A DNA stretch of 25,499 bases from a virus (taxonomy: Duplodnaviria; Heunggongvirae; Uroviricota; Caudoviricetes), in IMG/VR virus record IMGVR_UViG_2671180429_000007; one strand, written 5' to 3'. This document shows, piece after piece, positions 1,046 to 25,499 of the stretch. Within the stretch, counting starts at the first letter, position 1; each line of letters begins with the position of its first letter. The notes beneath the pieces are model-generated. The model worked only from the letters and a program-made list of their open reading frames with translations. It was not told where the DNA came from and ran no database searches. Both the position numbers and the translations under genes were made by a program.

Positions 1046-1417
1046 TTGTGGAGAAAGTTGATGCGTGATATGTATGAAGTAATGGATCGTTGGGGAGCTT
1101 GGGCTGCTTCAGACAATAGCGGAGTGGACTGGCAGCCGATAGCGGCTGGTTTCAAGGGACTTTTACCTCATGGCAAAAAGTCACGGATTCAGTGTGATGA
1201 TGACGAAGGCATCATGATAGACAGTTGTGTGGCTCGGTTGAGAAGGTATAAACCAGAGGAATATGAGCTCATCATCGCCCACTTTGTTATCGGTATCTCA
1301 TTACGCACTATTGCGAAGAAGAGAAAATGCTCTGATGGCACAATTAGGAAGGAACTGCAAACTGCAATGGGGTTTGTTGACGGCTGTTTAGCAATGTTAG
1401 CTTATAGTATGGCATAA
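1046..1417 (+). CDS. Q-type late-gene antiterminator (small Phage_antitermQ-like form)
   Basis: 123-aa ORF immediately after the DUF968 gene. Motifs (RWGAWAA...WQPIAAGFKGLLP...C..D....C..) match my recollection of the small antitermination protein Q family of lambdoid prophages. Position upstream of the lysis cassette fits. Confidence 0.65.
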   Translation: MWRKLMRDMYEVMDRWGAWAASDNSGVDWQPIAAGFKGLLPHGKKSRIQCDDDEGIMIDSCVARLRRYKPEEYELIIAHFVIGISLRTIAKKRKCSDGTIRKELQTAMGFVDGCLAMLAYSMA

Positions 1418-2611
1418 AAAATAAAATAGATTTACTGCCGATTTTTCAAAAAAGACTGGGAACTGTTTATATCCAACGTAAATAAGGCCTCCATAAAACA
1501 TGGCTGATGCGAGATATTTAACAGTTCTCATCCTTTTTTTAGCTTTATCAATCAAACCTGTAATGCTACTCTTAATACTATCTGCATTATCTTTGATTTC
1601 TTTATTTTCTTCAAACTTTAAATACTTATCGAAAGCGGACTCCACTCGAGAACGTAAGTTGTCGAATGTTTCATTGAATATCTCAATAGAAATGTAATTG
1701 ACTTTTTTTATCATCCAAAGTCCTGCGATAATCAATATTGCTTCGGTTGTTTCATTAGCCTTCACTAAGCCACCAGCAGCTATTAATGCACCGGGAATAG
1801 TCAATGCTTTTGTCTGATTAGATGATATGAATTCGTTAATTTTACTCGTGAACTCAAGATTTTTCTCATCGAGTTCGTTAAGAATTTTATTTACAGAAAA
1901 CCTCTTTGTGTAAATCTCATATAGTTCATCATATTTTTTCCTGACGAGTTCAGTAGAGTTAAGCAAGTCAAAGAAATTGAACGTACCATTTGCTTTAAAT
2001 ACTTCGTTTATGGCTGAGCGTATAACGAGCTTGCGCTCGCTTTTGTGTAAATCATTGATTTTTATTGTGTCGAGAAGCTCCTTTATAATTTCATATTTAA
2101 GAGACGAGTTCGATAAGCGATTAATCTCGCTATATTGTAAAAAATGCGTGAGTTCGACTGTATAACTTTTGTCTTCATTGGTGAAAAATAAGACAGAGCA
2201 GTCACTGTTATGATGATCAGCAATTAATGAAAGGATATCTTTCCACATAAAGAAAATATGGATTTTTTCGATGCTTTCATTCTTAGAAGTAGGGAGTATT
2301 AACGGCGTTCCGATGATATAATTTTTCGGAAGAGCGTTTTGGGTGTTTACTCTAGACCAAAAAGACTCAACATTCTCATAAATTATAGCGTCATCCCAAG
2401 ATGAAGCTTGGCGATCTAGCCAAATTTCATTATTTTCGATGCAGGTTGTTGCCTTTTTATAACCTATAGATTGTAACAGTCTAATTATTTCAGAACTATT
2501 TACAATAACAATGCTTTCTTCAAGACTTATGACAGTGTAGTAGCCCTCAACTCTGCTTGAGGCTCCGTTAATAATCTGCGCTAATCTTGATAAGTCATCA
2601 GCAATTGTCAT
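1397..2611 (-). CDS. Hypothetical protein with C-terminal hydrophobic (likely membrane) segments; second gene of AT-rich two-gene moron
   Basis: 404-aa ORF, visibly AT-rich, K/N/I/E-rich. Start codon at 2611..2609 lies 2 nt after the stop of the upstream gene (2616..2614). Hydrophobic stretches ALTIPGALIAAGGLV, AILIIAGLWMI and YLASAMFYGGLIYVGY near the C-terminus. I recognise no family. 3' end overlaps the Q gene 3' end by 21 nt, convergently. Confidence 0.6.
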   Translation of the reverse strand: MTIADDLSRLAQIINGASSRVEGYYTVISLEESIVIVNSSEIIRLLQSIGYKKATTCIENNEIWLDRQASSWDDAIIYENVESFWSRVNTQNALPKNYIIGTPLILPTSKNESIEKIHIFFMWKDILSLIADHHNSDCSVLFFTNEDKSYTVELTHFLQYSEINRLSNSSLKYEIIKELLDTIKINDLHKSERKLVIRSAINEVFKANGTFNFFDLLNSTELVRKKYDELYEIYTKRFSVNKILNELDEKNLEFTSKINEFISSNQTKALTIPGALIAAGGLVKANETTEAILIIAGLWMIKKVNYISIEIFNETFDNLRSRVESAFDKYLKFEENKEIKDNADSIKSSITGLIDKAKKRMRTVKYLASAMFYGGLIYVGYKQFPVFFEKSAVNLFYFLCHTIS

Positions 2612-2613
2612 TA

Positions 2614-3789
2614 TTAGCTGTCTCTATATCTTTTGAGTTCATCATAATTTGCCTGACTCAATTTTATCACAATTTCGCATTTGTTGTCAGTGAGAATTAC
2701 AGGCTTATTTGACTTTTCGTCTCCAATAGCTCCACGCATTATTTTCAACTTAAAATTATTGTCGTTATCTGCCACTTCAATTGTAAGCGCGCTTTCAGCT
2801 GCTTTAGGAGTTGGTTCAAATTGAGGGTCAATCTGGAAACCATTAAGATTAACAAAATCGACAAACGTTCCCTTACATTTGTGTGAATCAGTCAGGCATG
2901 AGTCAATTATTTTTGAAATATCCTCTATCTTAACGGACTTATTTCCGTGTTTATCTTTTGATTTTTTTTCCAGTAAGGATTTAACTTCATTGTCAATAGT
3001 ATCACGCAGTACACGACCGAGTGAGTTTTTACTAGCAAAAATATCTATAGCACTGAATAATTGCTGAATGCTTCTTTTATTGTCCGAATCATGTCGGCAA
3101 CCTAATGAGTCTTTGAAAAAATCGCTTTTAGATTTACCTTGCAAGAAATGTACATATGAGTCACCCTTGTTTTCTGGATAACTGGCTTCGAATAAAGTTA
3201 AATCGAACATCGCAGCCTGCCGTAAGGCATCGGTATTAATTGGATTTAATCTTGTTGGGGTCAACTTATCCGAATCAAAGTCATAGGCGCTTTGTTTATC
3301 AACCATTACGATTAGAAGTTTCCCCAAATCCTCTGGTTCGGTAGACTTATAGTGGATGAAAACAACGCTCCCCCCCTGAAGTTGGGCAACTCTCGATTCG
3401 TTATTAGCATTATGTTTAAGCTTCTCTATTATAGCTCTAGATAAATCAATGAATTCATTATTTTTATTAATGTATTTTTTTAGGATCGTAGGAATGGATG
3501 AAGGGTTGTGATCTGAGTCTAGGAAGTTATGAAATTTGTTTTTTCGGCTAAATTTTTTCTCAATTCTGGTTATGAATTCAGATGTGACTTCATTTTTTAG
3601 ATCCCAAACTTCACCTAATCGATAATCAAATGCTCTTGAATCATTTTTTTCAAGATTTGCTGTTACAGCACCAATAGGAAAGTACGATTGTTTGCCCAGC
3701 ACTACAACATGAGGCGTGGCACCGCATTTATCGCAAGCTACAGTTGGGTCGTCAAGAACATTGCCACATTCTAAACAAGTTATATCCAT
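2614..3789 (-). CDS. Zinc-ribbon protein with NdpA/YejK-like (NA37) nucleoid-associated domain; first gene of AT-rich two-gene moron
   Basis: 391-aa ORF, AT-rich. N-terminus has CxxC...CxxC (CLECGNVLDDPTVACDKCG). Central block GGSVVFIHY...LLIVMVDKQ...AMFDLTLFE...YVHFLQGKSKSDFFKDSLG resembles my recollection of E. coli YejK/NdpA (GGFVLFCHY...ARIDLTEWE...[22 protein letters not shown]). Needs HMM confirmation. Confidence 0.6.
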   Translation of the reverse strand: MDITCLECGNVLDDPTVACDKCGATPHVVVLGKQSYFPIGAVTANLEKNDSRAFDYRLGEVWDLKNEVTSEFITRIEKKFSRKNKFHNFLDSDHNPSSIPTILKKYINKNNEFIDLSRAIIEKLKHNANNESRVAQLQGGSVVFIHYKSTEPEDLGKLLIVMVDKQSAYDFDSDKLTPTRLNPINTDALRQAAMFDLTLFEASYPENKGDSYVHFLQGKSKSDFFKDSLGCRHDSDNKRSIQQLFSAIDIFASKNSLGRVLRDTIDNEVKSLLEKKSKDKHGNKSVKIEDISKIIDSCLTDSHKCKGTFVDFVNLNGFQIDPQFEPTPKAAESALTIEVADNDNNFKLKIMRGAIGDEKSNKPVILTDNKCEIVIKLSQANYDELKRYRDS

Positions 3790-23541: not shown

Positions 23542-24327
23542 ATGCATCGTATAGACACGAAAACCGCGCAGAAGGATAAGTTCGGCGCGGGTAAGAACGG
23601 TTTTACCCGTGGTAACCCCCAGACTGGCACGCCTGCCACCGATCTGGATGATGACTACTTTGATATGTTGCAGGAAGAACTCTGCAGCGTGGTGGAGGCA
23701 TCCGGTGCCAGCCTGGAGAAGGCGCGGCACGACCAGTTGCTTACCGCGCTTCGTGCGCTGCTGTTAAGCCGCAAGAATCCGTTTGGCGATATCAAATCGG
23801 ATGGCACGGTGAAAACGGCTCTCGAAAACCTTGGTTTGGGAGAAGGCTCTGCATTACCTGTTGGTGTGCCTGTTCCATGGCCTTCAGCCACACCGCCAAC
23901 AGGCTGGCTGAAATGCAACGGTGCGGCATTTTCTGCTGAAGAATACCCGGAACTGGCAAAGGCTTACCCGACCAATAAATTGCCTGATTTACGTGGTGAG
24001 TTTATTCGTGGCTGGGATGATGAACGTGGTGTGGATAGTGGGCGAACTCTGCTTTCAGCGCAAGGAGATGCTATTCGAAACATTACTGGCGGTTTTGGTC
24101 AGTTGCGCGTAAACAGCGAAATTAATGCAATTGTCGATGTTCAAAGTGTGAGTGGGGCTTTTTACGGAGGTACCTCAGTCCGGAATAACATCAATGTATC
24201 TATGACATACGCTAATGACCGAAAAATCCGACAAGATGTTCACTTCTCGGCGGCAAATGTTGTTCCAACAGCAAATGAAAATCGTCCACGTAACATCGCC
24301 TTTAATTATATTGTGAGGGCCGCATGA
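23542..24327 (+). CDS. Side tail fibre protein
   Basis: 261-aa ORF. N-terminus ([46 protein letters not shown]) is the conserved tail-fibre anchor region. Followed by a tail fibre assembly gene. Confidence 0.7.
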
Positions 24328-24929
24328 TGAATAAAGCTGTATTGAATAGCGAACTCATTGCCATAAAAGCGGGAGACATTATCATTTATAATTATGATGG
24401 TGAAACGCGGGAATATATTTCTACATCAACTGAATATCTCGCTGTCGGCGTCGGTATCCCGGCATGTTCCTGTTTGGATGCACCAGGTACACATAAAGCT
24501 GGTTATGCAATCTGTCGCTCTGTAGATTTAAATTCATGGGAATATGTGCCAGACCATCGCGGTGAAGTTGTCTATAGTACCGAAACGGGAGATACCAAAG
24601 AAATCACAGTTCCGGGTGATTACCCGGAAAATACAACCACTATAGCCCCATTAACGCCATACGATAAATGGGATGGTGAGAAATGGGTGACCGATACTGA
24701 GGCACAGCATAGCGCCGCAGTAGACGCGGCAGAAGCACAGCGTCAGTCACTGATTGATACTGCAATGGCTTCCATTAGTCTGATTCAACTGAAATTGCAG
24801 GCCGGGCGGAAGCTGATGCAGACAGAAAACACCCGACTTAACGCTGTGCTGGATTACATTGACGCGGTGACGGCAACAGATACCAGCACCGCGCCGGACG
24901 TCATCTGGCCTGAACTGCCGGAGGCGTAG
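24324..24929 (+). CDS. Tail fibre assembly protein (Tfa)
   Basis: 201-aa ORF with ATGA overlap to the fibre gene. C-terminus ...[15 protein letters not shown] is typical of Tfa chaperones. Confidence 0.8.
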
Positions 24930-25320
24930 GCCATTCAATATCTGGCGCACCGGAAGTATCGACCAGTTCCAGTGCGTCCAGATAATCCAGCCACAAATTA
25001 TATTGCGCCAGTTCCTCACCTTTCAGGCGACCAATCGCCGCTTTACCTGGCCATTGTCTGCTGTTCATGTGCTCGTTGGCTTCATTAATAAGTTTTCTTT
25101 TTTTCAAATCCGCCAATGCAATAAGGTTTTCTTTTGATAAAGGTGGTTGCTCTGTCAAAACCGGATATCCCTCCTGATTGCTGACTATTTTCATGCCATT
25201 ATCCTGACCATCCAGTAGTAACAGCCATTCATCCGTGGTTATCTCAACAGCATCTGAAGGTGCTTTATTTAAATCGGTAAAAAAACCATTTTCTTTTTGT
25301 GAATAGAAGTATCTATCCAT
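24901..25320 (-). CDS. Tail fibre assembly protein, alternative copy on the opposite strand
   Basis: 139-aa minus-strand ORF convergent with the + Tfa, overlapping it by 29 nt. C-terminus ...[13 protein letters not shown] parallels the + copy. GGAGA RBS upstream of its ATG. Confidence 0.75.
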   Translation of the reverse strand: MDRYFYSQKENGFFTDLNKAPSDAVEITTDEWLLLLDGQDNGMKIVSNQEGYPVLTEQPPLSKENLIALADLKKRKLINEANEHMNSRQWPGKAAIGRLKGEELAQYNLWLDYLDALELVDTSGAPDIEWPTPPAVQAR

Positions 25321-25340
25321 TTATTAATCTCCAAAAGCAA

Positions 25341-25499
25341 TGAACCGCCCCGGTTTTCCTGGAGAGTGTTTTATCTGTGAACTCAGGCTGCCAGATCATC
25401 GTTTCTGATGGAAGCATAATAAGCTTTTTCTGCTTCTGCCGGAGGGATATGACCCAGCCTTCCCAGCAATCGTCGATTGTTATACCAGTCCACCCACGT
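25341..25499 (-). mobile_element. Partial IS element (IS3-family-like) at window edge
   Basis: Terminal sequence TGAACCGCCCCGG... begins at 25341. A minus-strand ORF running off the window encodes a DDE transposase C-terminus. Element continues beyond 25499. Confidence 0.55.
25383..25499 (-). CDS. Transposase (DDE/rve integrase core) C-terminal fragment, truncated by window end
   Basis: Reverse-strand translation ...TWVDWYNNRRLLGRLGHIPPAEAEKAYYASIRNDDLAA* has the YNxxRxHxxLGxxxPxE-type C-terminal motif of IS3-family OrfB. Stop codon at 25385..25383. Confidence 0.6.
   Translation of the reverse strand, partial: TWVDWYNNRRLLGRLGHIPPAEAEKAYYASIRNDDLAA

Follow-up and report, generated by a model that had tools for sequence, protein, structure and literature searches.

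The end of the window, by which we mean the whole 25,499-nucleotide stretch of phage DNA analyzed here, very probably captures the remains of a tail-fibre switch that was broken by a mobile element. Taken together, the right terminus of a complete IS629-type element, a 2,846-bp deletion, an e14-like prophage in thrW, a frozen Pin-type switch and a tfa' gene left as a relic make up a single reading of this locus that we hold with high confidence. The final 1.2 kb of the window, and likewise its final 13 kb when compared in full, match NZ_AP038987.1, the E. coli O103:H2 strain PV16-126, at 100% identity. The corresponding region of that record is referred to as L001, where the window coordinate equals the L001 coordinate plus 12,299. 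Relatives used for comparison were ACN002 (L002), CH4790 (L005) and 2196 (L006; NZ_JBUCKS010000002.1), where L006 is the closest relative in the window's orientation. The L006 record is 1.69 Mb long and titled 'plasmid unnamed1', yet it bears chromosomal genes (paoCD) and is probably a mislabelled chromosome fragment of the assembly.

The IS629-type element at the end of the window

An initial annotation, made from the letters of the window, had placed an IS3-family end at position 25341, 20 bp from the minus-strand start codon of an alternative Tfa gene. The coordinates read directly from the sequence and the BLAST matches agree with this placement. BLAST, ORFs and profile matches identify 25341..25499 (minus strand) as the right end (IRR side) of an IS629-type element of the IS3 family that measures 1310 bp when whole. 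Its terminal inverted repeat, TGAACCGCCCCGG..., begins at 25341, and the annotation was right to read this motif as an IS terminus, since it bounds a 1310-bp element with matching inverted repeats. The orfB stop codon occupies 25383-25385, and the window contains the final 38 codons of orfB and this stop, with coding continuing to its edge, which confirms the earlier description of a transposase C-terminus leaving the window.

Extension beyond the window edge, as the annotation had proposed, places the whole element at L001 13042-14351, a length of 1310 bp without a target-site duplication. The terminal inverted repeats are imperfect, with TG...CA ends and identity at 22 of 26 positions (IRL, TGAACCGCCCCGGGAATCCTGGAGAC; IRR, TGAACCGCCCCGGTTTTCCTGGAGAG). 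Two genes are intact on the minus strand and read towards tfa': orfA, encoding 108 aa with an HTH_Tnp_1 match, and orfB, encoding 295 aa with HTH_21, rve and rve_3 matches and an NCBIfam transpos_IS3 score of 312 bits versus a cut-off of 160. They overlap in the 0 and -1 frames with an A6 run (GGAAAAAATAATG), and the RefSeq annotation of the L001 element includes a programmed frameshift and an AL1L pseudoknot. The element at the window end is a complete IS629-type IS, and it is apparently active. The designation IS629-type follows from its termini, which we take to be those of IS629, from its 92-98% match to copies carried in RefSeq under 'IS3-like element IS629/IS1203 family', and from the 4-5% divergence published for IS629 subtypes (PMC3271280). 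Inspection of its features reveals the ~1.3-kb length with TG...CA ends, the overlapping orfA and orfB with an A-run and the multicopy distribution of an IS629-type element. The one such feature lacking at this copy is a 3-4 bp target-site duplication, which is missing because of the 2,846-bp deletion described below; the lack of one tells against a simple insertion but has no bearing on whether the element is an IS.

Sequences of this type are widespread. IS3-family loci in 4,105 of the 5,426 complete E. coli genomes match the final 159 bp of the window, with 100% identity in many O103, O145, O26, O111, O121 and O157 records, and the PV16-126 chromosome carries the 1.3-kb IS repeat in 13 places. 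Self-comparison of L001 locates a second 1310-bp copy at L001 16592-17901, inverted relative to the first and 94.8% identical to it. Both have full-length counterparts of 100% identity at unrelated sites in O103, O145 and other EHEC genomes. The two differ at 69 of 1310 positions, scattered over the whole length, such that neither was recently copied from the other, and a composite element built from the pair was rejected on these grounds. An inversion of the trlF stretch that lies between them was likewise rejected because the stretch is collinear with the relatives. Coexistence of IS629 subtypes that are 4-5% apart is described for O157 (PMC3271280), and the two ~5% divergent copies of PV16-126 resemble that situation. 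A 100%-identical copy in the O103:H2 strain 12009 lies between yahN and yahO; it was considered as the same locus given its nearby coordinate and rejected, the yahN-yahO site being unrelated.

The deletion at the IS

Relatives lacking the IS define what once occupied this position. In L005 and L006, read in the window's orientation, the gene order is fibre, tfaE, tfa' (reverse), gp53-like Sv' (reverse), pinE, hyp165 and hyp34, followed by trlF (reverse), attR, a LysR fragment and paoD. The annotation had expected an alternative fibre segment and an invertase at this point, and a gp53-like Sv' and pinE do follow tfa' in intact relatives; the comparison with IS-free genomes that it suggested finds both genes intact in L002, L005 and L006.

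Collinear BLAST blocks fix the endpoints of the missing DNA. The left block aligns L001 3001-13042 with L005 1-10042, the middle block aligns L001 14350-16592 with L005 12886-15128 at 100% identity, and the right block aligns L001 17902-20819 with L005 15125-18042. Inspection of the blocks reveals that L005 10042-12887, a length of 2,846 bp with a 1-3 nt ambiguity from bases common to the IS termini, is absent from L001, where the IS stands in its place. Position 25341 of the window is the last that is homologous to the IS-free relatives. Lost from PV16-126 are Sv' (Gp53-like_C, E=1.6e-13) up to its final 5 codons, the crossover site on the pin side, TTCTCCCAAACCAACGTTTATGAAAA (pixR, L005 10373-10398), pinE (Resolvase 4e-51 plus HTH_7), two small ORFs between pinE and trlF, and the 3' 441 nt of trlF, corresponding to its last 147 codons. 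The first of the small ORFs (L005 11350-11847, 165 aa) has no match in Pfam, NCBIfam or PADLOC, and the second (L005 12236-12340, 34 aa) has none in PADLOC.

The alternative fibre exon or pin gene that the annotation had recommended seeking past the IS is absent there, and trlF DNA directly adjoins the IS instead, which indicates that the Sv' segment and pinE were deleted and not displaced. The earlier suggestion that the IS had displaced or truncated the fibre segment and invertase thus captured their loss and the presence of the IS in their stead; it missed that they are gone as part of a 2,846-bp deletion rather than moved.

The flanks of the two IS copies differ accordingly in form. The first copy is bordered by ...AAAGCAA on one side and CTGAATTC... 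on the other, that is to say CAA versus CTG, with no target-site duplication. In contrast, the second copy has CTT on both sides where the uninterrupted relative reads GGGC-CTT-TTCC, a clean 3-bp duplication of the kind left by simple IS629 insertions, whose duplications are normally 3-4 bp (PMC3271280). As judged from these alignments and flanks, the event reads as an IS-associated 2,846-bp deletion without target-site duplication, not as a plain insertion.

The two junctions of the first IS, left and right, and the junction of the second IS on its trlF side are each found in one of 5,426 complete E. coli genomes, that of PV16-126. The search by these three junctions thus returned no intermediate among the 5,426 genomes; we therefore infer the order of events and the mechanism of deletion. 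The most likely route would begin with two direct IS629 copies, one in the 3' end of Sv' and one in trlF, which would then be resolved by homologous recombination to yield a single copy that keeps the outer flanks and lacks a duplication. Alternatively, a transposase- or IEE-associated deletion adjacent to a retained IS would give an identical product. Deletions caused by IS629 are documented in EHEC, where those linked to IEE and lying beside IS629 range from a few nt to >40 kb (PMC9943667), and models for deletion adjacent to IS629 have been discussed (bioRxiv 10.1101/2023.06.07.543989). IS629/IS1203 insertions and IEE-promoted deletions in EHEC share with the present case the element size, the orfA/orfB arrangement, the frameshift and a deletion beside a retained IS (PMC9943667). 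No mechanistic difference from these EHEC deletions was seen; what is specific is the strain and what was hit in it, namely a Pin switch and a Ppl-like gene. That IS629 inactivates and deletes DNA in EHEC prophages is already well documented, and PV16-126 offers a strain-specific instance.

The fibre module and the Pin/pix switch

The tail-fibre gene (23542..24327, plus strand) encodes the now-fixed form of the fibre, a 261-aa ORF with a Pfam Collar match (PF07484, E=7e-16). Its constant N-terminal part is joined at a crossover site to a Collar-domain variable tip (Sv). L001 annotates the product as 'phage tail protein', and the gene is of equal length in the IS-free L005 and L006. A motif search located the 26-bp pix site TTCTCCCAAACCAAGGTTTTCGAGAG within the fibre gene (23819..23844, minus strand), where one match was found in the window and 0 are expected by chance. 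The pix core has no other copy in the window or in 25.2 kb of L001. This surviving site includes the published repeat of the e14 P segment, TTGGTTTGGGAGAAGG (PMC12529663).

Downstream lies tfaE (24324..24929, plus strand; Caudo_TAP, E=3e-30), the chaperone matched to the expressed fibre tip, whose product is RefSeq WP_001030519.1 in L001, L002, L005 and L006. The orphaned tfa' (24901..25320, minus strand; Caudo_TAP, E=3.4e-25) encodes the alternative tail-fibre assembly chaperone of 139 aa, RefSeq WP_000376429.1 in L001 and in the IS-free relatives L002, L005 and L006. Its start codon is at 25318-25320 (cat on the plus strand), and exactly 20 bp, positions 25321-25340 (tttattaatctccaaaagca plus a), separate that codon from the IS terminus. 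Translation against L005, where the full Sv' ends in ...AYWIAFGD and a stop, reveals that 25324..25341 (minus strand) gives IAFGD and a stop, the last 5 codons of the gp53-like tip, with the T at 25341 common to this stump and the IS terminus. The 20-bp 'spacer' before tfa' is accordingly the stump of Sv' and not intergenic DNA. The genes tfaE and tfa' converge and overlap at their 3' ends, across which lies an 18-nt imperfect inverted repeat (window 24848-24865 and 24974-24991, 83% complementary). This repeat is probably no regulatory hairpin but a reflection of the two homologous chaperone C-termini, which are encoded on opposite strands.

As the relatives show, the ancestral order was fibre (Sc-pixL-Sv), tfaE, tfa' (reverse), Sv' (reverse), pixR and pinE, continuing past pinE with two small ORFs, trlF/ppl and attR. 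The segment is bounded in the relatives by two inverted 26-bp sites, with crossover sites at L005 8520-8545 and 10373-10398 and at L002 7527-7546 and 9372-9391. In ACN002 the segment is flipped relative to the window, L005 and L006, and it is 99.8-99.9% identical. The occurrence of both orientations among near-identical relatives indicates that the ancestral switch was active.

Inspection of PV16-126 for the parts of a Din-family switch reveals one crossover site of two and no adjacent serine invertase gene, the latter being absent from L001 and annotated as pinE in L002, L005 and L006. Sv/tfaE and tfa' are present with Sv' cut to 5 codons, and the two orientations are observed among the near-identical relatives alone. 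The PV16-126 locus is thus a derelict former member of the Din family, not a working one. Serine invertases require a pair of sites in cis. Inversion in e14 was abolished by deletion of either stfP or stfE, which takes away one repeat in each case, even when PinQ was provided in trans (PMC12529663). Given the two-site requirement and these one-repeat removal experiments, we infer that the PV16-126 segment can no longer invert. The fibre would then be frozen as Sc-Sv(Collar) with TfaE, and the host range would be fixed, as the annotation had expected. The deletion may also have taken cis elements lying within pinE, and tfa' would be a stranded relic, never to be placed behind the late operon.

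The annotation had proposed that the IS may have removed the promoter context of tfa', a proposal that does not hold given that this gene lies behind a 5'-truncated, promoterless Sv' in the window's orientation anyway. The Sv'-tfa' cassette is without a promoter in this orientation in intact relatives too, and tfa' is expected to be silent. A consensus scan of the IS and the junction found no promoter-like site. The IS end contains a weak 5-bp stem plus T-run that is terminator-like, where scan counts lie at most ~2.4 SD above shuffled sequence. Any read-through from the IS into tfa' would mean a possible gain of transcription, and it is conceivable, if unlikely, that a transposase gene reading into tfa' could create a constitutively expressed, stand-alone fibre chaperone.

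The ancestral arrangement closely resembles known inversion systems, namely the e14 P segment with PinE of K-12, the Mu G segment with Gin and the P1 C segment with Cin. As in each of these, a crossover site divides the fibre gene, and the relatives analyzed here carry two convergent Sv-tfa cassettes with an adjacent serine invertase (pinE). The baseplate context is like that of e14, with ymfQ upstream, and the crossover core is identical to the e14 repeat TTGGTTTGGGAGAAGG (PMC12529663), with a segment of ~1,853 bp in the relatives versus 1,797 bp in e14. In contrast to the e14, Mu and P1 switches, that of PV16-126 is broken, with one site, no invertase and no Sv'. The carriers differ as well: that of PV16-126 is an apparently complete thrW prophage with head, tail and lysis genes, whereas e14 is a decayed remnant at icd. 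Shufflons of the R64 type use the Rci tyrosine recombinase, several invertible segments and multiple sfx sites. They share with Pin switches a DNA inversion by which a fibre or adhesin gene exchanges its C-terminal end. The relatives, in contrast, have a serine recombinase (Resolvase plus HTH_7) and a single segment with two sites, and an R64-type shufflon was rejected on this basis. The label 'shufflon' in the initial annotation is therefore apt in so far as an inversion system was lost, and needs to be replaced by a single-segment, serine-invertase system of the Pin/Gin/Cin (Din) type.

The thrW prophage, trlF and alternative readings

According to the annotation of L001, the PV16-126 locus is an e14-like prophage in thrW (tRNA-Thr). 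It starts with an integrase, ymfK/ymfT/ymfL-type regulators and Q, continues through a lysis cassette, terminase, portal and HK97-type capsid genes, and then encodes a contractile Mu-like tail and baseplate up to ymfQ. The fibre gene (261 aa, Collar), tfaE, the reverse-strand tfa' and the IS follow 3' of ymfQ. The prophage is apparently complete as a prophage. A 56-bp copy of the thrW 3' end, attR, is kept at L001 18340-18395, past the second IS; the deletion is therefore internal to the prophage, and a loss of attR that would trap the prophage was rejected. Elsewhere in the window, an antisense two-gene insert (1397-3789, minus strand) lies between the Q antiterminator and holin genes, the interval that is the stx position in Stx phages. 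One gene encodes a 404-aa protein without a Pfam or PADLOC match, and the other a 391-aa homologue of the nucleoid-associated protein NA37 (E=1.2e-23).

Between pinE and attR the prophage bears trlF, a Ppl-like/TrlF-family PHP-AAA ATPase gene that is intact at L005 12447-15200 and disrupted at L001 14349-17901. The 917-aa protein of the relatives has a full-length PADLOC Ppl match (5e-157) and scores 651 bits for NCBIfam TrlF_fam_ATP against a cut-off of 350; its score for the Ppl_antiphage equivalog is 630, below the cut-off of 1000. Ppl is a single-gene anti-phage system combining a PHP exonuclease with an NTPase (PMC12904381), and by these profile matches trlF is a candidate anti-phage defence gene. 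PV16-126 has taken two hits in it. A second IS629 subtype sits at ~codon 25 with the 3-bp duplication CTT, and the deletion takes residues ~771-917 together with the AAA_21 match at 793-859. The 739-aa 'TrlF' CDS annotated in L001 is a doubly truncated remnant whose stop codon comes from the IS terminus.

Three other readings of the locus were weighed. The window itself stops 159 bp into the IS, and from its letters one might suppose a simple insertion just upstream of tfa', past which the invertase and the alternative fibre segment would still be whole. This reading finds no support beyond the window and we give it almost no credence: the far side of the IS in the identical genome is trlF DNA at 100% identity to L005 (L001 14350-16592), the first IS copy has no target-site duplication, and 25.2 kb of L001 contain no second pix core. 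Somewhat less remote, and still highly improbable, is that two direct IS629 copies around an intact 2.8-kb Sv'-pixR-pinE-trlF' block were collapsed into one during assembly. Repeats of 1.3 kb in 13 chromosomal places are classic collapse points, and such a collapse would yield the identical sequence, also without a target-site duplication. The record was deposited as a complete chromosome, however, and the 5%-divergent second IS just 2.2 kb away is correctly resolved with its duplication. In addition, IS629 sites free of a duplication are common, since 21 of 47 in finished O157 genomes have one (PMC3271280).

The last alternative accepts the deletion and asks whether it was selected, such that trlF, hit by two IS629 subtypes, was the target or locking of the fibre was beneficial, with loss of the switch either collateral or adaptive. 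The independent disruption of trlF at ~codon 25 and at its 3' end, the Ppl and TrlF profile matches of its product and the effect of e14 P-segment orientation on T2 adsorption in K-12 (PMC12529663) are all consistent with it. We regard it as unlikely given that two IS hits within 3 kb of an IS-rich EHEC genome are statistically unremarkable and that the events occur in one genome of 5,426, with no recurrence pointing to selection. It is quite unlikely that the double disruption of trlF and the loss of the Pin switch jointly reflect selection rather than neutral decay. Among the possible forms that selection might take are an easing of Ppl autoimmunity or of a conflict with replication of the prophage itself, and, by analogy with e14 StfE2 and T2, a permanently fixed fibre/Stf state that may influence superinfection. 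An IS629-associated deletion that froze the Pin-type switch is the reading we retain.

The locus represents ordinary IS-driven prophage decay in a single strain and raises no new biological question. For annotation, its value is that it accounts for a fibre module with the appearance of half a switch and allows the prophage to be scored as fixed in host range and null for a defence gene, the Ppl-like trlF. PV16-126 adds one further documented case to the remodelling of EHEC prophages by IS629, and its junctions, being specific to the strain, could be used to trace PV16-126-like O103:H2 as an epidemiological marker.
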